Shown here: one piece after another, positions 4,780 through 63,421 of the stretch
How the letters are laid out: each line of letters begins with the position of its first letter
Position numbering within the stretch: the stretch's first letter is position 1
Program-made: the position numbers and the translations under genes
Notes under the pieces: generated by a model
Told to the model about the DNA's origin: nothing
The model's database searches: none
What the model saw: the letters and a program-made list of their open reading frames with translations, nothing else
IMG/VR virus record: IMGVR_UViG_3300020187_000029
Strand: one strand, 5' to 3'
Length of the DNA stretch: 63,421 nt
Origin: a virus

Positions 4780-4859
4780 AACTTACTTGTTACATTTTTT
4801 ACACTTGCTGTAAGGCTTTCCACACTTACACATTTTTTTAATTTTTGAATATGCCATAA

Positions 4860-5759: not shown

Positions 5760-5990
5760 GGGGTTACCAAATTTTACATTTTTTTGCTGTTCGCTCTAAC
5801 TTCATGATTTTATTGAGCGTAACGCTCTTACTCTGATATAGTGCCATAACAATAAATTAAAGGGTAAATATAAAAGAAGTCGTCATTAGGAGCCTAATAA
5901 TTCATTACTCGATCTACTGTTGTAAAAGCCAATCCTGAATTTTAATAATACCCAGAACATTATATTTTATTTTTACCAAAAATCAACAAC

Positions 5991-6587
5991 ATGTCTTTAA
6001 CTGAAATCTTCAACACAGAAGACTTTAAAAAGATGATATTTAATCCATTTAAGGTTAAAGGGTCATTGAAAAAAAAGTTTCCTAAAATGAAAATGTTTAG
6101 CAGTTTCCAAACCGCTGAAGACCAAATGATTGCATATGTTCTTTATATGTATGATCAAAACACACCAATGAAAGAGCAGTTTCCAGATCTTAAAATAAGA
6201 AAGGAGCAGTCCGCTGTTTTATCTGGATATGATCTTGTAAAAGACAATGAGATATTACATGATATGTTTTTTTTCAAATCCACTAAGGTTATAGAAATGG
6301 TGGATGAGTTTTTAAGAAAACAAAACAATAGAATATGGTCAATGATTGTTTCTAATGAGCAAACATTTTTTGAATATCAAAAAAAATTATTAAGTCCTGT
6401 TGAAGGGGAAAGAGATAAAGATATATTACAAGCCTTACAAATAAAGTCTAAAATAATGGACGACTTAAACACTATAAATGATAGGTTGGATTCTTATTAC
6501 ATGAAACTTTATGGTGAAGATCAAGAATTGTTAAAGACAATAAAATCAGATAAAAGATTAACTCCAGAATTCATTGCTAATTTATGA
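5991..6587 (+). CDS. Hypothetical protein (198 aa); small terminase candidate by position only
   Basis: First gene of the late block, overlapping the TerL start. Confidence 0.5.
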   Translation: MSLTEIFNTEDFKKMIFNPFKVKGSLKKKFPKMKMFSSFQTAEDQMIAYVLYMYDQNTPMKEQFPDLKIRKEQSAVLSGYDLVKDNEILHDMFFFKSTKVIEMVDEFLRKQNNRIWSMIVSNEQTFFEYQKKLLSPVEGERDKDILQALQIKSKIMDDLNTINDRLDSYYMKLYGEDQELLKTIKSDKRLTPEFIANL

Positions 6588-39674: not shown

Positions 39675-42600
39675 ATGGAAGACGAAGATATCTTAGGAGT
39701 TGATCCTTTTGTAGATTTAAGTACAGAGGAAAAAGAAGATAAATTAATTATTCTTGCGGATAAATTGAGAAAGTCCAGGAATACAGGTATGTCTGGTTTT
39801 GAAATACAAGATATACAAAGTGTTATACCTGACCTTAATCAAAATCAATTTCAAGAGGCTGTAGCCTGGGGTAACACTTTTAATAGAGGTCGTTACGAAC
39901 AAGGTGATGAGTTGAATTCTAAATTTGAAGGTTTATTTCCTGAGTTAGAGGGTGTTCAGTTTCCTGAATATGAAAACAACAACGGTTCTATAAATGTATT
40001 AAATGCCCAAACAAATCCTGATAACGCTCAGGGTAAGTGGGGTAAAATACAAGGTGCTATAGACAAAGGGACTCAGATGTACGATAACCAGGAAGTTGAT
40101 GGTGTTATTGCACAGCCTGGATTGTTGCCAGAAGGAACTGATGAAAGTATAAAAAAGAATTTGATACAATACGGACAGGTGTTAAGACATACTGATCCTG
40201 AGTTTAATAAAAAATACCAACCAGGAGAAGACCCTTTTGAAGATCCTAGGTCTGCATATGAATTTACAAAGCAAGCAAGAAATTTTCAAGGAACTAAATT
40301 TAAAGTTAATGCATTAAGATATATTGCTTCTAACTACGATAAGAATCTATATGATTTTGTAGATAAAAATGAAGACTTTTTTAAGATAATGCCTGAACTG
40401 CGTGAAGATGAAGAGTTCATGAAGATGTATAAATCCCATGAGGATGTAGCATCTAAATATCATGATCATATAAAAGCCAATTTTGGAGATATGTATTCTC
40501 AGGATGCAAGGGATATGCTGCAAACTGCTAGATTAAGTGGGGCTATGGGTCCAGGTGTTGGTGGAATTATGCCTGGTTATCTTGATACTTCTGTTGCAGT
40601 AGGTGTGGGAGCAGTTGTTGAAACTTTAGGAAACTTAGGAGGTGGTCTGTATGAGTTTTTTGCAAAGCATGGCGATAAACTAAATCCAGGGTTATTATTA
40701 GCAGACGCTATAGGAAGTTCACTTGCTTCAGATGAAACAAATGAAAAGTTAGCCGAACTAGATGAAGTATATGACAGACAAGCGGAAGTAACAGCAGATA
40801 AAATCTCCCATTTTTTCTCATCAGATAATTGGAAAGACACATCTTTAGGTCAATATGCATATGTACCTAATGAGGTAGCAGGGGCAGACTTGGCTGACAA
40901 TCCTATGTATATATTACCAATGACATTAAAGACTGTAGGTGAAATGGCTCCTGCGATTGTTGCTGCGGCTTACACAGGTGGAGGTACATTAGTAGCAGGT
41001 TCTATAATGGGGGGTGACCAATTCTTTAAATCTTATCATCAAACAAATAAAGAAGCAAGAGAACTTGGAGTAGATCCAGAAGACGCTGAAGCAATGGCAT
41101 TAAGTATAGCCCTTGTTACTGGTGGTACTAGTGCTTTATTTAATAACCCTTTAGCAAGAAAAGGTGTTGGTGCTATGATGGGTGTAAGACAAAGAGCCAC
41201 AAAAGAAGCGGTTAAAACCTTAGCATCTTCAGGAAGTAGACAAGCAGCAATAAAAGCAGGAGGAAAAGCATATTTAAAAGAAGTTGGAGGTGAGGAGTTA
41301 GAAGAACTTGTACAAGGAGGCTTTGAAAATTATACTAAATACAAGTACGATCAAAACTCTCCAAACCCAGTATATGGTGTAGATAAGTTTATGTCTAAAG
41401 AAGAGTTTACAAATACGGTAATTCTTACTGCAACAGCAACGACTTTAATGGCATCACCAAACCTAGGAATATCTTCATCTCAACTAGAGAAGGAAGCATG
41501 GACAACAGCAGGTTTAGATTATGCCAATTTTGAGAAATCTGTACAAAAAGAATTAAGCAAAAAGAACCCTAAGTTCACTGAGGAAACTGGCCAAGGTATG
41601 TTGGAGAAGGCTAAAGTATATGAAACTATAGTTAAGCCATTAAAAGACTCAGGGGTTAAAATAAATGAGATCACCGAATTGGCTGATGTTGTTTATAATT
41701 CAATGAATGCACCTACACAGCCTGATGCAGAAACATCTGCGGAACCAACTGTAGAGGAAAAGAAAGCAGAAATTAAAAATGGTATACCTAAACAAGGTGC
41801 TATTGTTGACGGAGGCAAAGTTGTTTCTGTAATAGAAAACATAGGAGATAGTGCCACAGATTCTGATTTAAAAACTAAACTAGATAACATCCAGGGTAGA
41901 ACTTTTAAAATGAAAAGGACTTCTCTTGAAACATTATACGAAACAAACAAAGAGTTTAAAAAGTTTGTAGATGAAAATCCTGACATGGTTTATGATGGCA
42001 AGAACAAAAATGCTCCTGCTGTTATTGATAATGAAGGAAATGTTTTAGATGGAATGAAGCGATTGGCTGCTGCATACAACAGAGGCCAAAAAGGAATTAG
42101 AGTTTTTAACGAACAAGAAACCACTGTTTCTAAAGAAGAAGAAACATCTATTGTAAACGCTATAGATAATATTGTATCTCCAACATCGGAGAATAGTACT
42201 AATGAATCTATGCAAGACATAGAAAAAATTGGTAACCATTTTCAAAGAGTGTTCAAAGGATCAACAATAGAATTTGATCAAGAAGTATTTAATGAAGAGG
42301 CCCAAAAAAGAGGATTAGATCCTGCAAAAAACAAAGGGTTTAGAGACAGAAATACAAATCAAATTTATATAAACCCTAAACTTGCTACGCTTGATACACC
42401 TATACATGAGTTTGCTCATATATGGGAAGACATGTTGGCTGAGGTAAATCCAGATGCTCATAAAAAAGCAATGGCTTTAATTAAGGGTACAAAGTTTCAT
42501 AAAGAAGCGGTTGCTAACGGTTATGGCGATAGAGCACTAAACGAGGCTTTAGTACAGGCTATTGGCGAAAAAAGTGCTAAAATATTTAAAGATCCTAAGA

Positions 42601-45600
42601 GACAATCACAGTTTGAAAAAGTAATTGATCAAGTTAAACAGGCAATTAAGCAAGCATTAAACTTACCTGCTGATGCAGATTTTGATATCAAAACAAGTAG
42701 TATTGATGCTGTTATAAACTCAAGTGCTGAGAAAATAATGTCTGCTACAAGTATTGATCCTAATGCAAATAAAGAATCAATTGATGTAGACGCAATTGAC
42801 GCACAGAGATATAAAAACCCTGAGCGTGAAGCAATAAAAGAATTCAATGCGTTAAAAGAAACATTAGAAAACGATCCAACACTATCACAACTTACTCCTG
42901 TGATGAAGGACGGTAAATATCAATTCACTAAAACAAAATCAGGTAAACTAAAAGTTAAAATATCTGGTCAGTCTTATGCTTTGGTTAACGGAGTTAATGA
43001 ACACTTTGAGGGGACTATTGAAGAGAAAATAGACCTGATTGGTGACAAAATTGTAGATGAATTTGAAGCAAATAAGGATGTACCTGAAGTAGTTAAAGGT
43101 TTAGGATGGTATAAAGATTTACATCTAAATATGAGAAACCTCTTTGGAGGTAGAACTAATTTCTTTGGTAGATTATTAGGTGCAACTTCAGGACAGACAG
43201 ATGTACAGCAAAATTACAAATATGCTACTCAAGCATTAGAGGCTTACTCAAAGGGTGCTTATGACAAGTACCTTGAAGAGTATAAAGAGTTTATTGACAG
43301 AGTAGAACAGTTTGAAAACGAAGAGGAATTAAATCAATTCTTTAACGAATATAAGGGAAGAGCAGTAAACGCTTTAAAAAAACAAGGAAAAACTGCTTAT
43401 AGCGAATCAAGAATTAAGCCTGATCCCAAAGACATTAACGAAACAAAAAGAAAGTTATTAAATCTATGGCCAAAGGCTAATCCTTTATATAGAACTGATA
43501 ATCCTACAAAACTATACGGTATTAATAGTCCTGCTGCTGCAAAGGTATTAGCAGGTATATGGTTGCAACAAACTCAGCAATCAAAGACAAATAACTTTTA
43601 TGAAAATGTTGTTGGTTTAACAACAAATCCTACTATTGATTTATGGGCTGCTCGTACAATAAGACGAATGGTTTATGATGGTAATGTTGATAGATACAGA
43701 ATTGCAGAGAGAGCAGAGCAAGGTGTAGATGAAAGAGTTTATGCTGCTGAAGCAGGAGGTTTTTCAGATTATCAATTAGCGGAAGAGGTTATCAAAAACG
43801 CTTCGGCAAAACTAGATATGGATCCCGATGATCTACAGGCATACTTATGGTTTGCAGAAAAGGATCTTTGGTTAAAAAAAGGATGGTCAAAAGGAACTGC
43901 CGCTAAGAAATCTGACTTTAGGGAAGAGGCTGCTAAAGATGATATCACTAGATATTATTTAGGATTAAGTACAGAAAGAGATCAGTATACAGATCCTGAG
44001 TTAGAAGCAAAAGATAACTTAGAGATAATAGAAGAGGAAAGACAGTCTATTCAAAACGACTTAAGAGAGGGTGACCTGGTATCATTAAAAGTAAACGAGA
44101 CACAGGGACAGTATTTAATATATCCTGAAAGAAGTTTTGATGCTGAGATGATTGTAAAATCGGATCAAGATATGACTCCTGTTTTGAAGAGGGCTATTGA
44201 GTCGGCAAAGAAACATGAACAAGAGTCGGTATTCTTGTCAGAGGTATTACCTATTGATGAGAGAATGGATCCTGAAACAATGGAGAGAGAATTGGCTAAA
44301 CGTCCAAACGCTCGGCCTGCTGTTGAAATGCAATTTAGAACTCCTATGAGTTTTGAAGAAGCATCTACTTTTGCTAGAGAAAATTTAGACAAAGAAGGTG
44401 TTCAATTAGGACCAGTAAAAACAGATATTTCTGGTTATACTTTTATAACTAATGAAGAAGGAAATAAGGTCTTAGGTGTTAAGTATCAGTTTGTTCCAGA
44501 GTTTGTTTTTGAAAACGAAGAGGATATTACAGATGATAATGTAAGGCAAGCAGTTAGTGACTGGAGTAATAATGCACATGAAACTAAATTAAATTTAGAA
44601 AACAACGAAAATGTTTTGTACTTTTACAACCATTATGTAGATACATTCGTTGCTCACAATAATCAATACAACGGAATCTTAAATAATATAGAAAATGGAT
44701 CAAAAGACATATTTAAAGGAACTAGCAAAACACGCACAAAGGAATACTTCCAATCAAAGGCCACAAGAGTCGAACCCCAACAAGGAAGTCCAAGTGTCGA
44801 TGCACAAAGACAACAAGATGAAGGGGATAGATCCCGCTTCTCTGGAACTGTATCGCCAAATGATGGCGGATCGATTTCAGGAGTCGAACACAGAAGAATA
44901 GATCAGGCAAAACTACCTGATCAACTTACACAGTTACTTACTACATTAAGTGGACAAGGCATGGTGCCTTCTAAACTTATACCCGCAATTAAGATATATT
45001 CTCAAAGAGTAGATGGTAAAGAACTATCTACTGAACAAGCGAGAATGCTGCTTAATAAATTCATGGGGTCTGAAGGTTTTAGACAAAGAGGATTTGAAAC
45101 AGGATCTATTGAAAATGCTAAGGACAGCGATGAAGGAAAGCAGGAAGTATATGATTGGGTAAACGAAAATCCCAACTATTACCAAACCATGGATATGAAA
45201 CAAACCATGGAACTAGTATTAGATGATATAAATTCTAGAGGTGGTTTTGAAAACGAACAAGTAATAAAAGATTTACTAGGTAGTAATACCACTGTTAAAG
45301 AATTAGCAAGAGTACAGTTAGCACGTCAAGCAGCATTACATCATTACGGATTAAAAGTCAGTAAACTTAGATCGGAGGGTGCATCAGGTGCGGAGATAGA
45401 TTCTGTAATTGATACAATGGCTAAAATAGAACGTGTTTTAGCAAAAGACGCTACAGAAGCAGGACAAGCATCTGCCGCATTAAGATCTTGGACAGCACAA
45501 ACAGCCGCTACATTAATTGACAGGACTGAACGTGCCATGGAGAAGTTTAATGAGGACATGGACAATAAGAGTAAGTTTGGTAATTTTATTCATAGGCTTT

Positions 45601-47885
45601 TTGGAGGTAAACAAAAATTAGAAAGCACAACACTATCACCAGAACAGCGTAAAAAAATTGAAGAGTTACACTCTATAATTAAAGACGCTCCTGCTAACAG
45701 TGAACTTGCTAATGTTGCTATGAGATCTATGTATAAATATATGGATTCGGTATTACCTTCTTACACATGGCAAGACACGTTTTTTGGTTTGCAATACGCA
45801 GCACTTTTATCAGGTGTTTCTACGCAAGTATTAAATGTAACATCAGGTAGTGCAAACATTGTTTTGCAACCGTTAATGGAAATGTCTAGAATAGATAAAA
45901 TATTTACAGGCGGTTACTTTGATTTCATAAGAAAGATTGGTTCTGGCACAAATAAAAAAGGTATGCAGCAAGGTTATAACATGGCTATGGATATCTGGAA
46001 AAATGGAGCCAGGGTAGATAAATACCAGAACTCTGAAAGCACACCAGATGGTGGTCAGTACAATGTTTTAGAAACTACAGAGTTTAAAGGTGGTAAAGCA
46101 AATCCTTACAACTACTATAAGTATGTGGGTAGAATGCTAAATGCTACTGATAGATTTATAAGTAAAGTTGGATATGAAGGTAGATATTATAATTATCTGA
46201 TAGATCAATTAAGAAAAGATGGTGTTCCTAAAAGTCAATTAAGAAAGAGAGCATCAGACTTATACTTAGCAACTGAAGTTAGTAGAACCGCACAAAAGGA
46301 AATGGAAACCTTAATGAACAGAATGCGTGAGGCTGATCCTGATACTGATTTTAGTAATATAGAAGTTGTTAGAGCAAGAGAATTAATGCACGAAGCACTT
46401 GCTTTAAAATATAGTGAGGACTTTGTTGACAAATCAGATGCTGAACTTGAAGTAATGAAGGAAAAAGATGGTTTCGATGGAACCATTGAAGAGTTTAAAG
46501 AATACATGAAGGCCATGAAAGAGGCTGAAATAAACGGTATTGCTACAGACGCTAACCTGGCAAGTAATGCACAGGTGTTTATAGACAATAGACCAGGAAG
46601 TTTTGCTCAACCTATTGCTTGGGTCGCTGAGAAAATTCGACAAGCATCCAATTCACAAAGTATAGGATTTGGTGGAAAACTTGCCATGAAATCATTTGTA
46701 CCTTTTACAAGTATTATTGGTTCAATTGGTGAATATATGATCGATGTTACACCTGGTATAGGTTTAGCAAGAGCATATATGGCTAAGGATGGTTTAGGTG
46801 AAAAAGGATCTAGAATGAGAGATGAACAAATGTCTAGAGCATACTTTGGTACAATGTCGTTTTTAGGTTTAGCAGCACTTGCGGCTAAGGCATATGAAGA
46901 TGATGATGAAGAACCGTTTTTTGAAGTAAGTGGTGGAGGTTACAACAACTCTAACATGTACACTAGAAACGATATGAAGAATGCTGCACTACCTCCATAT
47001 TCTTTTAAAGTTGGTGGTGTAGTTATGGATTATAGAAACATAGTTCCTTTAGCAATTCCAATGGCTATTATAGGTAATTATATGGAAACTCACAAGATGA
47101 CAGGAGGAAAAGGTGAGGTGTTTGATGACATGCAAGATAGATTGCTTATTGCTTATGCAAACTCTGCTAACTTAATTATGGATTCATCTGTACTTACATC
47201 TGTAAAAGAATTAACTGAGGCTATATTTGGTCAAGTAGATGGTAGAGGGTCTCAGTTTGATCCTAATACAGTTAGTGATTCTAGTTTAAATAAAACATTA
47301 CAGCGAATAGGTAAAACATCTATAAAATCTATTGGAGGAACTGTTTTAAGACCACTACCGCAAAACCTAAATTTATTTAGACAAACGACTAAAATTCTTG
47401 ACGCAAACTCATACAGTGCGGGAGATGCTAAAAATGCATTGTTATATGCAGCAGGACTTAGTCAAATTGCAGGTCAACCAAAGGTAGATGTGTTTGGTGA
47501 ACAGGCTAAAAGTTATCCAGGTGAAACAGTAATCCCTTATACTCATTGGTTTGGCTTAAGAGGTGAAGATGCTAGATGGCAGTTTTTAGATAAGTATAAT
47601 GCTTATCCTGGTAAAATTCAAAACAGACCTATGAAAATAGGAAGAGACATGAGAACTCTTACAGATGATGAACTTTACCAACATCAAATAACTACTGGTC
47701 AAGAGTTTAATAAACTCATTACTAATTATATGAGAGGAAGAGGTAGACGTGAAGATAAAATACTTACTTACTCAGGTAGATCTCAAAGCATGCACAAGAT
47801 GAACATTTCTAAAATGTGGGCTGCTGCTCAGGCTAAATCTAAACTGAGAAATAAAAAATCCTGGAGGAACACAATAATAGATTAA
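39675..47885 (+). CDS. Giant polyvalent-type virion/ejection protein (2736 aa) with ParB-like and zincin (HExxH) motifs
   Basis: PAVIDNEGNVLDGMKRLAAAY (nt 42042-42077) resembles the ParB/Srx DGxxRxxAA box. HEFAH lies at nt 42405-42419. Several Gly/Ala-rich hydrophobic segments. Lies directly upstream of the lysis genes. Confidence 0.55.
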   Translation: MEDEDILGVDPFVDLSTEEKEDKLIILADKLRKSRNTGMSGFEIQDIQSVIPDLNQNQFQEAVAWGNTFNRGRYEQGDELNSKFEGLFPELEGVQFPEYENNNGSINVLNAQTNPDNAQGKWGKIQGAIDKGTQMYDNQEVDGVIAQPGLLPEGTDESIKKNLIQYGQVLRHTDPEFNKKYQPGEDPFEDPRSAYEFTKQARNFQGTKFKVNALRYIASNYDKNLYDFVDKNEDFFKIMPELREDEEFMKMYKSHEDVASKYHDHIKANFGDMYSQDARDMLQTARLSGAMGPGVGGIMPGYLDTSVAVGVGAVVETLGNLGGGLYEFFAKHGDKLNPGLLLADAIGSSLASDETNEKLAELDEVYDRQAEVTADKISHFFSSDNWKDTSLGQYAYVPNEVAGADLADNPMYILPMTLKTVGEMAPAIVAAAYTGGGTLVAGSIMGGDQFFKSYHQTNKEARELGVDPEDAEAMALSIALVTGGTSALFNNPLARKGVGAMMGVRQRATKEAVKTLASSGSRQAAIKAGGKAYLKEVGGEELEELVQGGFENYTKYKYDQNSPNPVYGVDKFMSKEEFTNTVILTATATTLMASPNLGISSSQLEKEAWTTAGLDYANFEKSVQKELSKKNPKFTEETGQGMLEKAKVYETIVKPLKDSGVKINEITELADVVYNSMNAPTQPDAETSAEPTVEEKKAEIKNGIPKQGAIVDGGKVVSVIENIGDSATDSDLKTKLDNIQGRTFKMKRTSLETLYETNKEFKKFVDENPDMVYDGKNKNAPAVIDNEGNVLDGMKRLAAAYNRGQKGIRVFNEQETTVSKEEETSIVNAIDNIVSPTSENSTNESMQDIEKIGNHFQRVFKGSTIEFDQEVFNEEAQKRGLDPAKNKGFRDRNTNQIYINPKLATLDTPIHEFAHIWEDMLAEVNPDAHKKAMALIKGTKFHKEAVANGYGDRALNEALVQAIGEKSAKIFKDPKRQSQFEKVIDQVKQAIKQALNLPADADFDIKTSSIDAVINSSAEKIMSATSIDPNANKESIDVDAIDAQRYKNPEREAIKEFNALKETLENDPTLSQLTPVMKDGKYQFTKTKSGKLKVKISGQSYALVNGVNEHFEGTIEEKIDLIGDKIVDEFEANKDVPEVVKGLGWYKDLHLNMRNLFGGRTNFFGRLLGATSGQTDVQQNYKYATQALEAYSKGAYDKYLEEYKEFIDRVEQFENEEELNQFFNEYKGRAVNALKKQGKTAYSESRIKPDPKDINETKRKLLNLWPKANPLYRTDNPTKLYGINSPAAAKVLAGIWLQQTQQSKTNNFYENVVGLTTNPTIDLWAARTIRRMVYDGNVDRYRIAERAEQGVDERVYAAEAGGFSDYQLAEEVIKNASAKLDMDPDDLQAYLWFAEKDLWLKKGWSKGTAAKKSDFREEAAKDDITRYYLGLSTERDQYTDPELEAKDNLEIIEEERQSIQNDLREGDLVSLKVNETQGQYLIYPERSFDAEMIVKSDQDMTPVLKRAIESAKKHEQESVFLSEVLPIDERMDPETMERELAKRPNARPAVEMQFRTPMSFEEASTFARENLDKEGVQLGPVKTDISGYTFITNEEGNKVLGVKYQFVPEFVFENEEDITDDNVRQAVSDWSNNAHETKLNLENNENVLYFYNHYVDTFVAHNNQYNGILNNIENGSKDIFKGTSKTRTKEYFQSKATRVEPQQGSPSVDAQRQQDEGDRSRFSGTVSPNDGGSISGVEHRRIDQAKLPDQLTQLLTTLSGQGMVPSKLIPAIKIYSQRVDGKELSTEQARMLLNKFMGSEGFRQRGFETGSIENAKDSDEGKQEVYDWVNENPNYYQTMDMKQTMELVLDDINSRGGFENEQVIKDLLGSNTTVKELARVQLARQAALHHYGLKVSKLRSEGASGAEIDSVIDTMAKIERVLAKDATEAGQASAALRSWTAQTAATLIDRTERAMEKFNEDMDNKSKFGNFIHRLFGGKQKLESTTLSPEQRKKIEELHSIIKDAPANSELANVAMRSMYKYMDSVLPSYTWQDTFFGLQYAALLSGVSTQVLNVTSGSANIVLQPLMEMSRIDKIFTGGYFDFIRKIGSGTNKKGMQQGYNMAMDIWKNGARVDKYQNSESTPDGGQYNVLETTEFKGGKANPYNYYKYVGRMLNATDRFISKVGYEGRYYNYLIDQLRKDGVPKSQLRKRASDLYLATEVSRTAQKEMETLMNRMREADPDTDFSNIEVVRARELMHEALALKYSEDFVDKSDAELEVMKEKDGFDGTIEEFKEYMKAMKEAEINGIATDANLASNAQVFIDNRPGSFAQPIAWVAEKIRQASNSQSIGFGGKLAMKSFVPFTSIIGSIGEYMIDVTPGIGLARAYMAKDGLGEKGSRMRDEQMSRAYFGTMSFLGLAALAAKAYEDDDEEPFFEVSGGGYNNSNMYTRNDMKNAALPPYSFKVGGVVMDYRNIVPLAIPMAIIGNYMETHKMTGGKGEVFDDMQDRLLIAYANSANLIMDSSVLTSVKELTEAIFGQVDGRGSQFDPNTVSDSSLNKTLQRIGKTSIKSIGGTVLRPLPQNLNLFRQTTKILDANSYSAGDAKNALLYAAGLSQIAGQPKVDVFGEQAKSYPGETVIPYTHWFGLRGEDARWQFLDKYNAYPGKIQNRPMKIGRDMRTLTDDELYQHQITTGQEFNKLITNYMRGRGRREDKILTYSGRSQSMHKMNISKMWAAAQAKSKLRNKKSWRNTIID

Positions 47886-49170: not shown

Positions 49171-49185
49171 TTACAATGTAATTAC
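49167..49185. terminator. Hairpin at the convergent gene junction (GTAATTAC-aat-GTAATTAC)
   Basis: Two self-complementary 8-mers span both stop codons and are followed by TTT. The stem is AT-rich, so the hairpin is weak. Confidence 0.35.
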
Positions 49186-50424
49186 TTTATCCCTCAACAT
49201 TTCAAACATTTCAGATACCCTGTACTTAATTAAAATGTCTGAATGAAACTTTGTATACTTTGCTAACATCATTGGTGCCTGAGTGTCCTTATAATGTTTT
49301 GAAATTGTATTATCTGTTTGAAACATAAGTTCTCTTATATCAGCATCTGGAATACTAATAATGGATCCTGTTGTGTTGAATGCTTTTCTTGCTGACTTAT
49401 AACTATGACCTGTCAATTTCTTGAATTGCATTTGATTGACTTTCCAAACACTATCATCTACCGAACCACTCATTATTGGAAAAAGACTGTCACTGTTTGT
49501 GTTGGTTATATTATTTAATAATCGTATAATTTTCTTTATTGGATCTAGCCCCATATACACTAAGCCCATTTTATTAGTCTTTGATCTAAAGTGTTTGTAT
49601 ACCATATTCTTTTCAGCAAATAAATATGTATTATGATTTTCATAAGTAGAGTTTACAAATGACTTCATTGATAACTTCTCAAGGTCTTTAGCATACATTC
49701 CTCTCATTGAAAACATTAATAAATAAATCAAAATAGATATTACTTCTTTATTAAATTTTTTATCATTGGGGTTTAAGTCTTTAATTACATCAATTAATTC
49801 ATGAGATTTAATCCACTGTGGAGTGAAATTATTTTGTGGATTTGTTCTTACGTGAGGAAAAACATTAAATGTGATTTCATCTTTTAAAGCGTGAGAATGA
49901 ATTGCTTTTATTGCTCTATGATAAGTATTAAATGTAGCAGGACTTCTGCCTCTTTCTAACAGGACTTTTTTAAGTTTCACCCAAACCTGTTTCTGACATA
50001 CATCTTGAAAAGTGAGGTTCTTAATTCCAATATTAGAAGCAACTGATCTTACTTTGTTCTTATAATCATTAAAAGTGGTATCTCTCATTTGATCCTTAAG
50101 ATGATTATCTAGGTAGGAATTAATGTCATTTACATAAGATCCATAGGTTAATCTAGTTTTAGCCTCTTCAAATGTAAGAGTTCCAATAGCACTTTGCATG
50201 TGAAGATCATGAACAACATCCGTTAGTTTTTTTACTTGTTTATTCTTTTGTTCAAAATATGGATGATCAGGTTTTAACCTTTTGTTTTTTTTATCCCAAT
50301 ATTTTTTATACACTTTTATTGAAGTATATATTTTTTTATCTAGCAGTTTATTTTTAAAACGAACATGCAACAATACAGTTCCATCTTTATTAGTTTCGTT
50401 TCTGCTTCCAATTAATAGTCCCAT
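49171..50424 (-). CDS. int: Tyrosine recombinase / integrase (Bacteroidota-type, with an N-terminal arm-binding-like domain)
   Basis: The N-terminus LLHVRFKNKL..IKVYKKYWDKKNKRLK resembles arm-DNA-binding domains. The C-terminus carries MRGMYAKDL (R), LTGHSYKSARKAFNT (H..R) and SKHY (Tyr). Confidence 0.7.
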   Translation of the reverse strand: MGLLIGSRNETNKDGTVLLHVRFKNKLLDKKIYTSIKVYKKYWDKKNKRLKPDHPYFEQKNKQVKKLTDVVHDLHMQSAIGTLTFEEAKTRLTYGSYVNDINSYLDNHLKDQMRDTTFNDYKNKVRSVASNIGIKNLTFQDVCQKQVWVKLKKVLLERGRSPATFNTYHRAIKAIHSHALKDEITFNVFPHVRTNPQNNFTPQWIKSHELIDVIKDLNPNDKKFNKEVISILIYLLMFSMRGMYAKDLEKLSMKSFVNSTYENHNTYLFAEKNMVYKHFRSKTNKMGLVYMGLDPIKKIIRLLNNITNTNSDSLFPIMSGSVDDSVWKVNQMQFKKLTGHSYKSARKAFNTTGSIISIPDADIRELMFQTDNTISKHYKDTQAPMMLAKYTKFHSDILIKYRVSEMFEMLRDKVITL

Positions 50425-51246: not shown

Positions 51247-51630
51247 TTAAAACGGTAGATCAGGACCATCTTGTTTACCATTAACAAAGTTTTCAACCTT
51301 CTGCTCATGAGAATTAGACTTTCCGTTTGGAATGTTTCCATCGGCATAAGTAATTTTCCATGCGTTAGCATTAGCAGTCCTCAACTCTCCGTTACGATCT
51401 CTGTAACTTCTAAGGTTAATAGAAACCAATACTTCGTCTCCGCTTTTGTAAGCACTAAACAAGTTTGCCTTGGCACCAATTGCTTCAACAGGATAGTCTA
51501 CAGGATACTGACTATCAGCACCTAATTCAACTGTTAATACTCTTTTTTCAATCTCTCCTTTTTGAGTTTGAATGGTTTGTGCATCAGAGATGTTTTTGAT
51601 ACGACCTTGTAATTCTAATGAATTGCTCAT
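51247..51630 (-). CDS. ssb: Single-stranded DNA-binding protein
   Basis: OB-fold-sized N-terminal part with an acidic C-terminal tip ...DGPDLPF (the SSB D-D-D-I-P-F type). Confidence 0.6.
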   Translation of the reverse strand: MSNSLELQGRIKNISDAQTIQTQKGEIEKRVLTVELGADSQYPVDYPVEAIGAKANLFSAYKSGDEVLVSINLRSYRDRNGELRTANANAWKITYADGNIPNGKSNSHEQKVENFVNGKQDGPDLPF

Positions 51631-57555: not shown

Positions 57556-58518
57556 TTATTTTATTAACATTTGATTGTGTATTCTTTTTTGTTTTTCTAT
57601 AGAGTCTGAGTTACTGTGCTTTACGTATCTATAAAATGCTTTTGAGCCGTTAGTGTGCCCGCTAATATTCCTGGCCTCGATCTCGCTAAGACCCTTGGAT
57701 AGTTGGTAAGTTATACCGCTTGCTCTTAGTTTGTGGGGAGTTATAAGATCAAACAAAAACTTTTCTTCATGCACAGGGTTACCGTTATGATCATAACTGT
57801 ACACTATTTTCTTTTTATGAAATTCATTATAAAACTTAAGCAGTTCTTTAAGTCTTACTCTAAAGTATTGTTGTGACTGAGAAAAGGATCCCTTGCCCTC
57901 CAGGAATTTTAAAACATCATCAGGTAAGTAAAAAGAAGATATTGATCCTACTCCTTTTTTAGTAATTATCGTAACAACACTGCCATCTGAAGAGGCCTGG
58001 AAGTTTACCAGGTCACTTACTCTCATGCAAGAGTATAGCATAAGCCTGGTGTAGTACCATATATCCTGGAGTTCGATTCCTGGGTTGTTGTTATGTATAA
58101 GTTCTACTTGTGATGGCTCTAGAGCAATGACCTCCGTTTGAAGTTCCTTCATGCTCTGTAGTCCAGGAAACAGGTAACCATAATATGCTTCTGCTTTTTT
58201 AAGAGTTGTTCTTATTATTTTTAAATGTGTTTTCCTGGTGTTATGATGTTTGCAATCTTCTAGCATCATGTTGAGGTACTTATTTACGTGCGTCTGTAAA
58301 TTTCGGGTGACCTTCAATCTATCCTTTCTACTGTTTACGCTATTAAGATCTAAAGCATCTACATTAAAGTTATAATTGTATGCAGACATTTGATTGTATA
58401 CCTGTCTGTAGGAAGTTATAGTAAGGTTTGAAAATTTCTTTCCATAATTCAATATAGATCCATCCTCTAGTAAAGTAATGACTTGTTTCAGTAAGTGTAA
58501 AAAGGTTCCAGGCTTCAT
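57556..58518 (-). CDS. Tyrosine recombinase (second copy, short Xer/integrase-like)
   Basis: CMRVSDL (R), TPHKLRASGITY (HxxR) and SGHTNGSKAFYRYV (H...Y). Confidence 0.8.
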   Translation of the reverse strand: MKPGTFLHLLKQVITLLEDGSILNYGKKFSNLTITSYRQVYNQMSAYNYNFNVDALDLNSVNSRKDRLKVTRNLQTHVNKYLNMMLEDCKHHNTRKTHLKIIRTTLKKAEAYYGYLFPGLQSMKELQTEVIALEPSQVELIHNNNPGIELQDIWYYTRLMLYSCMRVSDLVNFQASSDGSVVTIITKKGVGSISSFYLPDDVLKFLEGKGSFSQSQQYFRVRLKELLKFYNEFHKKKIVYSYDHNGNPVHEEKFLFDLITPHKLRASGITYQLSKGLSEIEARNISGHTNGSKAFYRYVKHSNSDSIEKQKRIHNQMLIK

Positions 58519-58876: not shown

Positions 58877-59422
58877 TTAAATATTCATATTCTTTTGTAC
58901 AAGTATATCGTGTAAAGTTTTTTGTAGATCAGATGAACACTTGTCGTCTCTTATAATATCGTGTATTAAAACATTGTCTATTGGTGACAACAGTTCATTG
59001 ATCTTCTCTGTTACTTTATATTGAAGAGATTTTAAAAGATGATCGTATTTTTTTTGAACGTCAAAGTTGTCATCTTTAAGATGTAAGTAGTCAACAATAA
59101 TATCTTGACTATCAATAATGTTGCTGTCAAATTCTATACTAGAGATCACATGCATCACAGCATTATAATTTCTTCTAAACTCTCTATCTGTTTCAAATAA
59201 GGCATCGAATTGCTTAAGTCCATGAAGCACTGATGCATGATTCTTATCAAAATACTTGGCTATTCTTGTGTATGTGATGTTTAGTAATTCTCTACATAAC
59301 TTGTATACAATTCTCCTGGCATCTACATTCTGTCTTACTCTATCCCTTGCCATTGGATCTGATTTTGTAACTACTTTTACTGCATCGCAGATAATACTTA
59401 TGTCGTGGTTTATTGTGTTCAT
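58877..59422 (-). CDS. DnaA domain-IV-like HTH protein
   Basis: VDARRIVYKLCRELLNITYTRIAKYFDKNHASVLHGLKQF parallels the DnaA C-terminal pattern (ARQIAMYL.REL...IG..F.RDHTTVLHA.KKI). Confidence 0.45.
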   Translation of the reverse strand: MNTINHDISIICDAVKVVTKSDPMARDRVRQNVDARRIVYKLCRELLNITYTRIAKYFDKNHASVLHGLKQFDALFETDREFRRNYNAVMHVISSIEFDSNIIDSQDIIVDYLHLKDDNFDVQKKYDHLLKSLQYKVTEKINELLSPIDNVLIHDIIRDDKCSSDLQKTLHDILVQKNMNI

Positions 59423-59427
59423 TTGTT

Positions 59428-59739
59428 TTACGCTGTTAGGGTTTGTGTAATGTTTTTTGCAATTTCATTTGATACATTCCATTGATCTGACCAATATTTT
59501 TTTGATTTATTAATAGATCCAATGGAATTTTTTGATACCTGGTACCTTGAGGGCACTGTATTAAAAATATTAATTACATATTCTCTGTAGGGTAGGTAAC
59601 AAGCACCTGTTACTAATGCTGCTTTACATTTTTTTGTAATTGAGCCTCCTGAATTCCATGCTGCTCCTGAATTGATAAGAGCCTGTAAGACATCGTATCC
59701 GAATTGTTTCTGTAACTCTCGTATTTTACGTTCGTTCAT
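59428..59739 (-). CDS. Hypothetical protein (103 aa)
   Basis: ORF. Confidence 0.55.
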   Translation of the reverse strand: MNERKIRELQKQFGYDVLQALINSGAAWNSGGSITKKCKAALVTGACYLPYREYVINIFNTVPSRYQVSKNSIGSINKSKKYWSDQWNVSNEIAKNITQTLTA

Positions 59740-59798
59740 GACTTTAGTTTTTTTTTTCAGTTAGTAGTTGCCTGTCTGACAGGTGCTAAATTAATGAT

Positions 59799-59990
59799 TT
59801 AATCTCTATTACCAAAATATTCTCTATCCGATTTTGAATCATCGTTCATATCTAAGCAATCCCAAAGCATCTGTTTCCCTTTTAAACTATGAAACATGTT
59901 GCTAATAAATTGTTCATCCGTTCCTTTTGGAAACATTGCTTTGATGTGATCCTTTAATTTTTGATCTTCTTCGCTTAGGTTATAATACAT
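59799..59990 (-). CDS. Hypothetical protein (63 aa)
   Basis: ORF. Confidence 0.5.
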   Translation of the reverse strand: MYYNLSEEDQKLKDHIKAMFPKGTDEQFISNMFHSLKGKQMLWDCLDMNDDSKSDREYFGNRD

Positions 59991-60216
59991 CTCTTTGTGC
60001 TTTTAAAAATTCTTTGTTCTCATCTTCTTCTTTAATTTTTACTACAGTATTCATGTAGTCTTTAGTTTCGTTTACCAAAACCTGAACCTGTTTAAGTTGC
60101 TCTGTAATCTCATCCAGGTAAGGAAGAGATCTAGTCGGATCGTATTTATATTTCCTGGAGATCGTATCTAAAATGTTTGTCTCTAAAAACTTTCCCATTT
60201 TTATATTAGTTCCCAT
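59980..60216 (-). CDS. Hypothetical protein (78 aa)
   Basis: ORF. Confidence 0.5.
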   Translation of the reverse strand: MGTNIKMGKFLETNILDTISRKYKYDPTRSLPYLDEITEQLKQVQVLVNETKDYMNTVVKIKEEDENKEFLKAQRDVL

Positions 60217-60218
60217 AG

Positions 60219-60578
60219 TTATGAATTAAGTTTTTTAAATTGTAGTGTTAAGTTATCCTTCCAATGATCCTTGTCGTTGAGGTATTCGTCTATAATCTTA
60301 TTGACTAAGGGCAATTCCTCTACACCTAAGCCCGCCAATTTGGTTACCAGGGAGTCAATATGATTTTGAATATTCATATAAAACTGCTCATCGTTTTTAG
60401 CAAACAGGTTTATATACTTTTCCAATTCTTTTTCCAATTCTTTTTCTGCAATTTTTACTTTATGCTTTAAAGAGTGTTTAAAGATCTTTGTTTCTTTTAC
60501 ATCATCTAATGCTTCTAACATTAGTTGGCCATAGATCACCGCCTTGGTGACGCTATAAAATGTTTGTTCTTTATTCAT
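60219..60578 (-). CDS. Hypothetical protein (119 aa)
   Basis: ORF. Confidence 0.55.
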   Translation of the reverse strand: MNKEQTFYSVTKAVIYGQLMLEALDDVKETKIFKHSLKHKVKIAEKELEKELEKYINLFAKNDEQFYMNIQNHIDSLVTKLAGLGVEELPLVNKIIDEYLNDKDHWKDNLTLQFKKLNS

Positions 60579-60729
60579 ATTCTCTCATGTCTATTGGCTC
60601 CACATAAAATGTTTTACACAGTTTGTTATAAGTTTCTACTCCTGATCGAGACATTCTTTGTGTCTCCCATCCAAGGTCTACTATTTGATCCTGGATCTGT
60701 TTCAATTTTTTCATTGTTATTACTGCCAT
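60571..60729 (-). CDS. Small hypothetical protein (52 aa)
   Basis: Hand-translated: MAVITMKKLKQIQDQIVDLGWETQRMSRSGVETYNKLCKTFYVEPIDMREYE. TAATG overlap upstream, and the stop overlaps the next ATG. Confidence 0.5.
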   Translation of the reverse strand: MAVITMKKLKQIQDQIVDLGWETQRMSRSGVETYNKLCKTFYVEPIDMREYE

Positions 60730-61040
60730 TATTCCTCTTCTTTTAAAACTGTTAATAAATCCTTAAACACATCTATAAATCTGCATTCAAGTTCGTTTTC
60801 TGAAAACTCTATACGGTTTCCTGTATGTTGTAAATCAATACAGCCTATGTCTGTAGAAAAATCTTCAAATCCATTTTCAGTAAATATCCTTTGGATCTCC
60901 ATCATGGCTAGTTTAACTTTTAACTTTGCTTCAACTACTATGTCATCAGGGTTTAAATTAGTTTTCTTAAGTTCTTGTTTGAAGTAGGTATTTACTTCTC
61001 CCATTGTGTAATCTTCGGTATCAGTTATTAAGTATTTCAT
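60729..61040 (-). CDS. Hypothetical protein (103 aa)
   Basis: ORF. Confidence 0.55.
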   Translation of the reverse strand: MKYLITDTEDYTMGEVNTYFKQELKKTNLNPDDIVVEAKLKVKLAMMEIQRIFTENGFEDFSTDIGCIDLQHTGNRIEFSENELECRFIDVFKDLLTVLKEEE

Positions 61041-61477
61041 TATGAGTTGGTGTTTAAAATTGCGTAAATATTATCTATACATTCGCCATCACTTGGTGGC
61101 TCTTCGTTTGAGTCGGCCTCGTATTCTACCAGGTCCATGATCGCCTCAATTACTCTCATCATTCCAAAGCCTTCTGCTTTTTCTGTAGAGTTTCCGCTGT
61201 CTAATAATTCCTGGGCTTGTTCCTTTAGGCTGTAACGATTTGGGGTGACCTCCTCTTTGTCTTCAACCCAAGGACATGCTTTATTGTATAGAGAGAGAGC
61301 AAGTGTCTCATCGCCTATAGCAGTCATAAGAATATTTAATTCACCTCTTTGTGCTCTACCTCTTCTATAAACTCCAGGATCTTCTGATCTCTCGAAGTGC
61401 CAATCGTGAGAGGTTAACGCTTTTTGTAATTTAATGATCGCATTTAATTTTAATTGAACAGTTTGCATGATTTTCAT
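61040..61477 (-). CDS. Hypothetical protein (145 aa from the ATG at 61477)
   Basis: The track start at 61492 is a TTG lying inside hammerhead stem I. The first ATG (MKIMQTV...) lies 16 nt downstream of the predicted ribozyme cut. Confidence 0.55.
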   Translation of the reverse strand: MKIMQTVQLKLNAIIKLQKALTSHDWHFERSEDPGVYRRGRAQRGELNILMTAIGDETLALSLYNKACPWVEDKEEVTPNRYSLKEQAQELLDSGNSTEKAEGFGMMRVIEAIMDLVEYEADSNEEPPSDGECIDNIYAILNTNS

Positions 61478-61488
61478 TTTTAAGTTAT

Positions 61489-61540
61489 ACAAAGACGCTT
61501 CGCAGCGTTTCGCCTGGATCTCACAGGCTCATCAGTTTGT
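61489..61540 (-). ncRNA. Type-I hammerhead self-cleaving ribozyme (HH-A)
   Basis: Minus strand: ACAAA|CUGAUGA|GCCUG-UGAGAUC-CAGGC|GAA|ACGCU-GCGA-AGCGU|C^|UUUGU. All invariant core positions are present. Predicted cut after C at 61494. Confidence 0.85.
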
Positions 61541-61702
61541 TTATCCCAGGAAACCAAAAGTTGCGTTAGGATCTATACCTTCTGTTACCAGGTGAAAGAT
61601 TAGCATTGTGAATGATACAGCCCATACAGTAAATAAAGATCCTATAAAGGTTTTTGTTGCGATTGTTTGAATTTTGTTTAACATGGTTTTTCAGTTTAAA
61701 TT

Positions 61703-61855
61703 ATTAATTGATTATTTGTTGTAGTTCATTAAGTTGATAAGATCGGATTGCTCTCCTACTAAGTTCATTGCTGTTAACAATGCTAGTCCTAGAAAAGTAA
61801 TTGCTAATGCGACTACTGTTGCGACTAGTACTAATTTTAATTTTGATTTTGACAT
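61703..61855 (-). CDS. Small protein (50 aa) with an N-terminal hydrophobic segment
   Basis: Hand-translated codon by codon: MSKSKLKLVLVATVVALANYFSRTSIVNSNELSRRAIRSYQLNELQQIIN. Its ATG lies 27 nt after the HH-B cut. It replaces the plus-strand ORF 61734-61934. Confidence 0.45.
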
Positions 61856-61876
61856 TTTGTTTATTTTAAATTATTT

Positions 61877-61926
61877 GACAATGACGCTTCGCAGCGTTTC
61901 GATCATAAAGATCTCATCAGATTGCC
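61877..61926 (-). ncRNA. Type-I hammerhead self-cleaving ribozyme (HH-B)
   Basis: Minus strand: GGCAAU|CUGAUGA|GAUC-UUUAU-GAUC|GAA|ACGCU-GCGA-AGCGU|C^|AUUGUC. Predicted cut after C at 61883. Stem I overlaps the UAG stop of 61926-62171 by 1 nt. Confidence 0.85.
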
Positions 61927-62171
61927 TAGTATAGTTCCTTGTCTACTTGCATCCATAGATTATAAACATAGTTGTAATTGGTGCCGATCATATTGGCAAG
62001 TTGCTCAAACAATCTCTCTCTTACCAGGCTGTCATCAACACCTATGTAGAGGTAAACATCAGCACCTGTATGTAAGCAATCCATTAAGGCTACAAATGTT
62101 GTTAAATTGATTTCAGATCCCAATTCATCTGTTGGGTATTTTTCCTGGTAGAATTCTCTTAATGTTAACAT
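61926..62171 (-). CDS. Hypothetical protein (81 aa)
   Basis: ORF preceded by the conserved leader motif. Confidence 0.55.
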   Translation of the reverse strand: MLTLREFYQEKYPTDELGSEINLTTFVALMDCLHTGADVYLYIGVDDSLVRERLFEQLANMIGTNYNYVYNLWMQVDKELY

Positions 62172-62181
62172 AGTTTTCAGT

Positions 62182-62517
62182 TTAAATTGTTTGTGTGTAT
62201 AATTCGTTTGTTACTTCTTCGCCTATTATATAAACAATCATGTTTACAGTAGTTTCCGCATTGTCGTAAGTTCTTACAGCATCATCACCAAAATTTTCTC
62301 TCTCGTAGTTCTGTACAAATGCGATTGCTTCAAAAGGATCAATGTTGTGTTTTTTTAACCATTGGCTACAGTTGTAATAACCGATTAAATAATAATCATT
62401 GTTGAATGCTTCCTGGTGTAGGTCGTTATCATCGCTATTCCATTTAACATCGTTGTTATCAGCGATAAAATCATTTAAATACTCTTTTAGTTCAGTTTTG
62501 ATTGTTTCAGTATACAT
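62182..62517 (-). CDS. Hypothetical acidic protein (111 aa)
   Basis: ORF preceded by the conserved leader. Its ATG lies 25 nt after the HH-C cut. Confidence 0.55.
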   Translation of the reverse strand: MYTETIKTELKEYLNDFIADNNDVKWNSDDNDLHQEAFNNDYYLIGYYNCSQWLKKHNIDPFEAIAFVQNYERENFGDDAVRTYDNAETTVNMIVYIIGEEVTNELYTQTI

Positions 62518-62538
62518 TGTTTTCAGTTTAAATTATTA

Positions 62539-62590
62539 ATCAGACATCCCGAAGGATGTTTCGCCTGGATCTCACAGGCTCATCAGTGAT
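62539..62590 (-). ncRNA. Type-I hammerhead self-cleaving ribozyme (HH-C)
   Basis: Minus strand: AUCA|CUGAUGA|GCCUG-UGAGAUC-CAGGC|GAA|ACAUCC-UUCG-GGAUGU|C^|UGAU. Predicted cut after C at 62543. Confidence 0.8.
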
Positions 62591-62591
62591 C

Positions 62592-62867
62592 TTATGCTCG
62601 TGCTACAATTCCGTCTAGAGTGTCGGCAATTGCGTGTAGATCTCTAAGCATCATAATATCATGTGAGTATAAACGATCAGCCTCGGCTCTAAGATTTGTG
62701 TAGTAGTAACCGTCATAGATACCGTAAAGAGAGTTGACCAAATCTGATGCTCTAAAGCCTCCGTTACGTAGGTTGTGAATTGTTGTTTGGATAAATGACA
62801 TCATCATTGGATTGAATGTTGTGTATCTATCGAATCTTTCTGTGGTGTTGTAGTTTGAATTTTGCAT
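62592..62867 (-). CDS. Hypothetical protein (91 aa)
   Basis: ORF. Confidence 0.55.
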   Translation of the reverse strand: MQNSNYNTTERFDRYTTFNPMMMSFIQTTIHNLRNGGFRASDLVNSLYGIYDGYYYTNLRAEADRLYSHDIMMLRDLHAIADTLDGIVARA

Positions 62868-62967
62868 TTTATTTTCAGTTTTAATTAATTAGTTATTAGT
62901 AGTTGTTACTTCTCATGAAGGTTGCAAATAATGCGATTGGAATTGCTAGTGCTATTAAGATCATGGC

Positions 62968-63213
62968 TTATTGGTTTACAGAGTTAATAAATCTTAAGGC
63001 TTCTTTTTTGCTAGTAAATTCTGTACCGCCTGAAAAAGGCTTATATAAATCTTCTTGAAATAGTTGATTGAATGGATCAGAAGGATCTTTGTAGTAGTTG
63101 AAATCAACACCATGCTCGCCCCAATCACTGTATGATATTCTAGCGTTGTGGACTTTGATACCTGTGAAGTTCGGAAGGTATTCTGTTTGCAGTTCTGTAC
63201 TTAAGTAATTCAT
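62968..63213 (-). CDS. Hypothetical protein (81 aa), first gene of the early operon
   Basis: ORF preceded by the leader motif and the candidate early promoter. Confidence 0.55.
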   Translation of the reverse strand: MNYLSTELQTEYLPNFTGIKVHNARISYSDWGEHGVDFNYYKDPSDPFNQLFQEDLYKPFSGGTEFTSKKEALRFINSVNQ

Positions 63214-63282
63214 AATTTCAGTTTAAATAATTGATATTCAGTTAATTAGCGTTTCGAGTGTCATGCTCGCTGAACGATGGTA

Positions 63283-63315
63283 CAAATATAACGCATTATT
63301 TTATTAACATCCAAA
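63283..63315 (-). promoter_or_regulatory. Candidate early promoter, Bacteroidota sigma-A type (TTTG-N21-TATATTTG)
   Basis: On the minus strand the -33 TTTG is at 63315-63312 and the -7 TATATTTG at 63290-63283, about 70 nt upstream of the first early ATG. Confidence 0.5.
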
Positions 63316-63421
63316 TGTGAATATCACTTTTTTTAGTAAATACCTCTGTATAACCTGTAAAACCTAGGAAAAAAACTTTAAAAAAAATTTGAACGCATGT
63401 CCAAGCGGGGGGTAATTTATC
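63295..63421. repeat. Terminal overlap copy 2 (identical to 1-127)
   Basis: Same as above. Confidence 0.95.

Follow-up and report, generated by a model that had tools for sequence, protein, structure and literature searches.

Introduction

Several hammerhead ribozymes flank individual genes or small groups of genes within polycistronic units of prophages, and it has been proposed that they process the long transcripts of these units (Perreault et al. 2011, PLoS Comput Biol, PMC3088659). In that study, fragments of about 2 kb with tandem (multiple) hammerheads from three bacteria cleaved as expected in vitro, the triple array of Agrobacterium tumefaciens cleaved in vivo too, the identities of the hammerhead-flanked genes were not constant, and a hammerhead variant was located 13 nucleotides (nt) before an early helicase gene in the haloviruses HF1 and HF2 (PMC3088659). 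Type II hammerheads near phage-like genes were found to cleave in vivo in D. vulgaris with cyPhyRNA-seq (PMC8782182). A 2019 review repeated the idea of polycistron processing and called the function of bacterial ribozymes "largely elusive" (PMC6765202). Here we report a computational analysis that followed up a preliminary description of three putative type I hammerheads, designated HH-A, HH-B, and HH-C, in the IMG/VR virus record IMGVR_UViG_3300020187_000029. The whole 63,421-nt stretch of DNA that was analyzed is referred to as the window.

Arrays of the Perreault type have at least two coding-strand hammerheads that flank genes or gene blocks, and the window has three within 1.1 kb; a promoter pattern match is in keeping with a single unit. 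As in the 2011 arrays, the hammerheads are clustered, the flanked genes are variable, and the proposed role is the same, processing into gene- or operon-length mRNAs. The preliminary description considered the locus "not a characterised regulatory system," but phage hammerhead arrays had already been reported in 2011 (PMC3088659). The arrangement is therefore a typical example of a widespread, already described kind. There are also differences. The 2011 arrays are in prophage regions of Clostridium, Azorhizobium, and Agrobacterium, whereas the genome in the window is complete, podovirus-like, and apparently lytic in style and belongs to a Bacteroidota-type lineage. All three window elements are type I with a very short stem I and are read from sequence alone, whereas cleavage was shown for the other arrays. 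In addition, a repeated leader motif and cassette boundaries accompany the elements described here across relatives. The modest novelty is in the lineage, the association with a repeated leader and the borders of cassettes, the natural series of close relatives that have or lack the elements, and the fact that the design escapes Rfam.

This phage group offers a test system for the function of hammerhead arrays in phages and bacteria. It includes close relatives with zero, two, three, or four hammerheads at homologous junctions, variable cargo, and a simple single-promoter operon. A comparison of isogenic or near-isogenic genomes that carry or lack the ribozymes might reveal whether mRNA stability, translation, or cassette exchange is altered by cleavage.

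Results and Discussion

Three type I hammerheads in intergenic spacers

A type I descriptor was run on both strands of the window. It specified a stem I of at least 4 base pairs (bp), the motif CUGANGA, a hairpin for stem II, the motif GAA, a hairpin for stem III with A15.1-U16.1 as its closing pair, a base other than G at position 17, and the 3' strand of stem I. Exactly three complete type I hammerheads were found, all on the minus strand and all intergenic (Table 1). Each has the complete core, comprised of C3 to A9 (CUGAUGA), the G10.1-C11.1 pair, G12 to A14 (GAA), the A15.1-U16.1 pair, and C17, and each has type I topology, with stem I open and stems II and III capped by loops. HH-A has a stem I of 5 bp, a stem II of 5 bp with the 7-nt loop UGAGAUC, and a stem III of 6 bp with a UUCG loop. 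In HH-B the three stems have 6, 4, and 5 bp, with a UUUAU loop on stem II and a GCGA loop on stem III. HH-C, with a stem I of 5 bp, combines the stem II and loop II of HH-A with the stem III of HH-B.

Table 1. Positions of the hammerheads, leaders, cassettes, and candidate promoter in the window, and order of genes and hammerheads in the window and two relatives (aa, amino acids; ORF, open reading frame; elements of each hammerhead are separated by spaces, and hyphens join the strands and loop of a hairpin)
Feature	Position	Strand	Description
HH-A	62591-62538	minus	C17 62543; GAUCA CUGAUGA GCCUG-UGAGAUC-CAGGC GAA ACAUCC-UUCG-GGAUGU C UGAUU
HH-B	61926-61877	minus	C17 61883; GGCAAU CUGAUGA GAUC-UUUAU-GAUC GAA ACGCU-GCGA-AGCGU C AUUGUC
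HH-C	61540-61489	minus	C17 61494; ACAAA CUGAUGA GCCUG-UGAGAUC-CAGGC GAA ACGCU-GCGA-AGCGU C UUUGU
Leader of 111-aa gene (after HH-A cut)	62518..62542	minus	25 nt, 84% A+U, predicted unstructured, contains UUUAAACUGAAAA
Leader of first 47-aa membrane-peptide gene (after HH-B cut)	61856..61882	minus	27 nt, 89% A+U
Leader of 145-aa gene (after HH-C cut)	61478..61493	minus	16 nt
HH-A/HH-B cassette	61926..62517	minus	111-aa ORF 62517-62182 (phrog_10208) and 81-aa ORF 62171-61926
HH-B/HH-C cassette	61541..61855	minus	two 47-aa hydrophobic ORFs, 61855-61712 and 61684-61541
Candidate Bacteroidota sigma-A-like promoter	63315-63283	minus	TTTG-N21-TATATTTG; pattern match only
Order in window			91 aa, HH-A, 111 aa, 81 aa, HH-B, 47 aa, 47 aa, HH-C, 145 aa
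Order in L028			92 aa, HH-A, 84 aa, HH-B, 46 aa, 47 aa, HH-C, 135 aa, 55 aa, 103 aa, 47 aa, HH-D, ~195 aa
Order in L013			91 aa, HH-A, 111 aa, 85 aa, 105 aa, HH-C, 143 aa

HH-A lies directly 3' of the UAA stop codon (62594-62592) of a 91-aa ORF, HH-C lies directly 3' of the UAA stop codon of the second 47-aa ORF, and the first G of HH-B is also the last base of the UAG stop codon of the 81-aa ORF. Cleavage is predicted 3' of C17, and the gap between C17 and the next AUG is 25 nt for HH-A, 27 nt for HH-B, and 16 nt for HH-C. These observations bear out much of the preliminary description. The descriptor and the sequence itself confirm its three consensus type I hammerheads and the C17 positions it gave; its invariant core, open stem I, and GCGA or UUCG stem III tetraloops are all seen; its placement of the elements 0 to 1 nt after a stop codon or overlapping it is correct; and its distances from cut to AUG agree with the ORF map. 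Its expectation that the transcript is cut into at least four pieces, the downstream ones with short conserved leaders, stands as a sequence-based prediction, and the leaders are A/U-rich. Other parts of its account require revision. The elements are not "regularly spaced," with predicted cut sites 660 and 389 nt apart, they do not demarcate single translation units, each hammerhead-bounded segment being two genes, and the label "early" for the operon derives from gene order.

Matches of this quality are not expected by chance. When the window was shuffled 400 times with its dinucleotides preserved, the descriptor found 8 matches, a rate of 0.02 per window, compared with the 3 observed. The observed matches are all in spacers and on the coding strand, in an interval of 1.1 kb. 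None of the remaining 17 CTGATGA heptamers of the window is in a hammerhead context. The three-way junction is the minimum free energy fold for HH-A and HH-B and the centroid fold for HH-C; fold z-scores of the elements are unremarkable, at -1.0 to -1.6.

Conservation and covariation in related phages

To follow the elements beyond the window, 80 IMG/VR loci were retrieved via the primase/helicase. A MAFFT alignment of all three hammerhead types was discarded because it placed the core of HH-B on loop II of HH-A and HH-C. A covariance model, R1, was instead built from an alignment of A- and C-type copies only, with no B-type sequence. R1 scored HH-A at 83.2 bits and HH-C at 75.8 bits, and it recovered HH-B at 31.8 bits (E = 5e-6) despite having been trained without B-type sequences. 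With the descriptor and R1 together, hammerheads were found at homologous junctions in at least 11 loci (L001, L012, L013, L015, L016, L028, L032, L033, L048, L055, and L057). An additional R1 match in the window (51311-51356, minus strand, 16.6 bits with filters off) lacks a CUGAUGA core and is inside an ORF, and it was rejected as a chance match.

Each of the three elements is retained among the relatives with changes in its stems. HH-A is kept, with compensatory changes in stems I and III, in L001, L012, L013, L028, and others. HH-B is kept in L001, L016, L028, L055, and L163, where loop II and stem III vary and N7 is U or A, and HH-C is kept with stem III changes and U or C at N7. A model-guided alignment comprised 38 matches, 18 of them distinct sequences. 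In these 18 sequences, 97.4% of stem cells are paired, compared with 26 to 42% when the partners are slid by 1 to 3 columns, and two-sided changes are found in 10 of the 16 pairs. For example, stem I changes from GAUCA/UGAUU to GAUUA/UAAUC, and stem III changes from CAUCC/GGAUG to CUUCC/GGAAG in one case and from CGCU/AGCG to CGCUC/GAGCG in another. No change is seen at any of the 11 specified unpaired core positions (C3 to A6, G8, A9, G12 to A14, and C17) or in either of the core-adjacent pairs, G10.1-C11.1 and A15.1-U16.1. Within the core, variation is confined to N7 (U, C, or A), the one position that is free in the hammerhead consensus. This pattern is the signature of a selected RNA structure with a fixed catalytic core, as judged from aligned sequences, and the conservation and covariation in related phages make hammerhead function very likely.

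The same design in other viruses

IMG/VR was scanned with a pattern drawn from stem II and loop II of HH-A and HH-C. The design, with a 5-bp stem I, a 5-bp stem II, and the 7-nt loop UG(A/U)(A/G)A(U/C)(U/C), was present in at least 118 IMG/VR contigs, and HH-A and HH-C match it exactly. Among the matches listed, 127 of 135 were complete type I hammerheads. Arrays between ORFs were found with five copies in L105, six in L154, and eight in L128. Of 142 distinct type I contexts in the viral loci retrieved, 135 were outside ORFs; in about half, no more than 2 nt separated the start of the element from a stop codon, and in about half, C17 was 11 to 35 nt before the next ATG. The other carriers of the design differ from the window in being unrelated phages, mostly of high GC content. 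A scan of genomes for the exact stem II sequence gave only 4 matches to metagenome-assembled genomes, from unrelated taxa, with no pointer to a host.

The largest array is that of L128 (IMGVR_UViG_3300041956_000313), a 92.7-kb contig with a GC content of 56% at the locus, in which eight type I hammerheads are located between ORFs over 5.5 kb (1336-6896). Nearly all of these copies have the same stem I, GCCCG/CGGGU, whereas the three stem I sequences in the window differ.

Stem I was exactly 5 bp in 99 of the 130 distinct viral type I hammerheads (loci L001 to L198). It was flanked by A on the 5' side in 114 of the 130 and by A on the 3' side in 87 of the 130, which is suggestive of a docking site. 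Loop II was 7 nt in 111 of the 130, a proportion that must be read with the fact that the search pattern itself fixed loop length. Positions -8 to -6 of these hammerheads are often a UAA stop codon, and this UAA may serve as both stop codon and tertiary-contact site.

Proposed processing of the transcript

The best explanation for these findings, to which we assign a probability of about 80%, is that three paralogous type I hammerheads in the spacers of an operon cut one transcript into four mRNAs. Each motif of about 50 nt would fold during transcription and cut itself 3' of C17, at a point past the upstream stop codon and 16 to 27 nt ahead of the next start codon. Stem I has only 5 or 6 weak bp, and because the calculated energies of the stem I duplexes are small (-1.1 to -3.5 kcal/mol), the two products should separate, which would make the cut effectively irreversible. 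The upstream mRNA would retain its stop codon because the cut comes after it, and its 2',3'-cyclic phosphate end would be behind two stable tetraloop hairpins (-10 to -15 kcal/mol for the 3' hairpins that the upstream fragment keeps). The downstream mRNA would have a 5'-OH end, followed by a leader that is short, A/U-rich (84 to 89% A+U across the leaders), and predicted to be unstructured. The predicted outcome is that one primary transcript yields four independent mRNAs, each with a two-gene or longer cassette, and that decay and translation of the cassettes are uncoupled. We infer cleavage in vivo, a single polycistron, and effects on mRNA stability and translation. The direction of any stability effect depends on host RNases and is not callable from sequence.

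Several observations weigh against this explanation. Because a ribosome that terminates at the neighboring stop codon would occlude both stem I and the core, folding must compete with translation. At physiological Mg2+, fast cleavage by natural hammerheads depends on a tertiary interaction of stem I with loop II (or on a pseudoknot), and the sequences only suggest such a contact here. The three copies are paralogues that have whole stems in common rather than three independent occurrences. In addition, four close relatives (L002, L011, L038, and L042, with 87 to 95% primase/helicase identity) have a compact early region with overlapping genes and no hammerhead. No other ribozyme class was found in the hammerhead-free relatives with Rfam at the gathering score. 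Because relatives this close can lack the hammerheads, the elements are dispensable, and with the rest of the variation they are therefore regarded as accessory and modular.

The Rfam results also stand on this side. In the whole window, Rfam 15 at the gathering score gave a tRNA only and no hammerhead. In E-value mode, positions 61300-62800 gave only subthreshold hammerhead matches, with best E-values of 0.11 and 0.52. HH-A scored 22.8 bits with RF03152 (RAGATH-1-hammerhead; threshold, 56.3) and 21.9 bits with RF00008 (Hammerhead_3; threshold, 48.5), and HH-C scored 17.1 bits with RF00008 (threshold, 48.5). In the same interval and mode HH-B matched no Rfam hammerhead model, and RF00163 (type I) had no match anywhere. 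Thus, none of the elements reached the gathering threshold of the Rfam hammerhead families (RF00163, RF00008, RF03152, and RF02275-7). The preliminary description had proposed a covariance-model search as a check and a lack of significant hits as grounds for rejection, and for the Rfam models no significant match was obtained.

We do not take this negative result as a refutation because the descriptor null and the covariation are both independent of Rfam. The window elements have the catalytic core and three-helix junction in common with RF00163, RF00008, and RF03152. RAGATH-1 is also type I and aligns end to end to HH-A, differing in an extra 5' hairpin that the window elements do not have. 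We judge that the Rfam failure reflects the training sets of the models, not a missing hammerhead. The Rfam models miss a design that is common in viral metagenomes, and therefore routine annotation undercounts phage ribozymes.

The operon and its leaders

The two ends of the window are an exact direct repeat of 127 bp (positions 1-127 and 63295-63421). Because its ends are identical, the window is a complete phage genome, closed or terminally redundant, with about 63.3 kb of unique sequence; the repeat is a terminal repeat or else the overlap of a circular assembly. With the ends joined, a tRNA-Arg(UCU) gene (148-221, minus strand, 67 bits with Rfam) is just upstream of the small-gene operon and on the same strand. 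This position is kept in L001, L013, L016, L028, and L055. In L038 and L042 a homologue of the 81-aa gene is upstream of the tRNA.

The promoter consensus of Bacteroidetes has TTTG at -33 and TAnnTTTG at -7. The candidate promoter in Table 1 precedes the first small gene (ATG 63213) by about 70 nt and is partly within the terminal repeat. It is the only match of this type on the minus strand of 59000-63421, where no other -7 element was found. One promoter-like site at the head of the operon, with none in its interior, is in keeping with transcription as one polycistron by the host polymerase. A scan for sigma-70 promoters gave matches no more numerous than in shuffled sequences.

The UUUAAACUGAAAA leader motif, with 0 or 1 mismatch, ends 1 to 6 nt before five consecutive start codons. 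Its copies are at 63227-63215, 62884-62872, 62532-62520, 62186-62174, and 61700-61688, all on the minus strand. No Shine-Dalgarno-like sequence was found in the leaders.

The large terminase subunit is 31 to 33% identical to those of Flavobacterium and Cellulophaga podoviruses and of crAss-like phages. The phage is distantly related to podoviruses of Flavobacterium and Cellulophaga. No DNA similarity to deposited phages was found.

Variation among relatives and alternative explanations

One possibility is that the principal consequence of cleavage is on translation. A free 5' end close to the next AUG might raise initiation on the leading gene of every cassette if the Bacteroidota host can initiate without Shine-Dalgarno pairing, with mRNA stability a secondary matter. 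The short distance from cut to AUG, the A/U-rich composition and predicted lack of structure of the leaders, the lack of Shine-Dalgarno-like sequence in them, and the Flavobacterium and Cellulophaga hosts of the closest phages by terminase are all in keeping with this suggestion. There is also a precedent, in that type I hammerheads in the 5' untranslated regions of fungal and plant RNA viruses require cleavage for translation initiation, according to a preprint (10.1101/2024.05.16.594327). Those elements are likewise type I, are just upstream of viral ORFs, and have cleavage tied to downstream expression. However, the hosts are eukaryotic, the genomes are RNA, and translation is cap independent, which makes the comparison an analogy only. 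Furthermore, genes internal to the cassettes of the window, and genes of hammerhead-free relatives, have the same leader motif without a ribozyme and are presumably translated. We consider an effect primarily on initiation rather unlikely. It would in any case be a submechanism of the processing into four mRNAs and not an exclusive alternative to it.

The content of the cassettes varies among relatives (Table 1). L028 is without the 111-aa gene. In L013, other genes replace the 81-aa gene, HH-B, and both 47-aa genes, and the 85-aa and 105-aa products encoded there are unrelated to those of the window's genes at that location. Several relatives have a fourth hammerhead, HH-D, roughly 1 kb downstream of HH-C; the window does not. 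HH-D is at 2910-2997 in L028 and is also present in L016, L017, L032, L033, L035, L055, and L057; it has a 9-bp stem III and a large distal insert of about 30 nt. The 5' edges of HH-B (hammerhead at 1496) and HH-C (hammerhead at 1882) mark breaks in homology with the window, at q1492-1495 and q1880, respectively. Further breakpoints are in the leader repeats (q908 and q1234), to which boundaries of deletions and insertions between relatives also map, for example, around the 111-aa gene that L028 lacks.

A 106-nt type I hammerhead with long inserts in stems II and III was also observed in two relatives with 76% primase identity (L050, 3106-3211; L051, 3329-3434). The descriptor finds it and the covariance model misses it.

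It could be argued from this variation that the hammerhead and repeated leader are linkers for the recombinational swapping of early-gene cassettes, that they persist or spread mainly for that purpose or selfishly, and that cleavage insulates a newly arrived cassette. Consistent with linkers of this kind, the cargo between conserved hammerheads varies, breakpoints coincide with the 5' edges of two hammerheads and with leader repeats, and hammerheads are gained and lost between close relatives. The copies are mosaic, with stem II common to HH-A and HH-C and stem III common to HH-B and HH-C, and the flanked genes in the arrays of Perreault et al. are not constant either (PMC3088659). However, the breakpoints are few and have no null comparison, and several of them are in the leader motif rather than in a hammerhead. 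A pure role at the level of DNA would also not keep the catalytic core and compensatory stem changes. Maintenance chiefly for recombination is therefore considered improbable, more so than a primary effect on initiation.

Cassette exchange and transcript processing could also be combined. A hammerhead plus an A/U-rich leader might be a portable insulator junction, at which recombination swaps cassettes while the 5' end and the start context stay constant, and at which the new 5' end promotes initiation in Bacteroidota hosts that initiate independently of Shine-Dalgarno sequences. The variable cargo, the position of breakpoints at the edges of hammerheads and leaders, and the gain and loss of hammerheads in close relatives fit this reading. 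We offer it as a tentative proposal, and our confidence in it is low. RiboJ is an engineered part that consists of a satellite-RNA hammerhead and a hairpin. As in RiboJ, a self-cleaving ribozyme before a coding unit would give a defined 5' end that is independent of the upstream sequence, with the natural use as an insulator being hypothetical here.

In a different scheme, pairs of hammerheads would excise a segment, and ligation by the ribozyme reverse reaction or by a host RtcB-type ligase would yield circular or spliced RNA. The 5'-OH and 2',3'-cyclic-phosphate ends of hammerhead products are RtcB substrates (PMC8782182), and in some relatives the stem I strands of HH-C and HH-D are interchangeable (ACAAA or GCAAA with UUUGU). 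In the window, by contrast, the three stem I helices (AUCA/UGAU, GGCAAU/AUUGUC, and ACAAA/UUUGU) are mutually incompatible, and no chimeric hammerhead could form across a circle junction. The circle model is disfavored because of this incompatibility. Spliced or circular products were sought by Perreault et al., and none were found (PMC3088659). We regard excision and ligation as very improbable.

Least probable of all is that the elements are chance matches, terminators, or noncatalytic structural repeats, for which the lack of a significant Rfam match, the unremarkable fold z-scores, and the flagging of stem III of HH-C by a simple terminator scan might be cited, but which is opposed by the low descriptor null, the invariance of the unpaired core positions and core-adjacent pairs while the stems covary, the lack of a U-tract 3' of stem III in HH-A and HH-B, and the recurrence of the same design in unrelated viral contigs.

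Other features of the genome

PHROGs matches in the window include terminase, portal, primase/helicase, and RecE-like exonuclease. Searches of Pfam, PHROGs, and PDB sequences gave no function assignment for the flanked proteins of 111, 81, 47, 47, and 145 residues. A link to antirestriction genes, comparable to ardA in A. tumefaciens, was considered, and nothing was found in support of it. An unlisted ORF of about 22 codons (about 62964-62896, minus strand), between the 81-aa and 91-aa genes, encodes the hydrophobic peptide MILIALAIPIALFATFMRSNNY and adds to the two 47-aa membrane peptides.

Although the genome looks lytic in other respects, weak PHROGs matches to integrase (phrog_1) were found for two minus-strand ORFs, 57556-58518 (E = 6e-13) and 49171-50424 (E = 1e-8). 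In the structural block, a 2736-aa ORF on the plus strand (39675-47885) has DUF7178 as its sole Pfam match and may encode a giant virion protein, as in crAss-like and N4-like phages.

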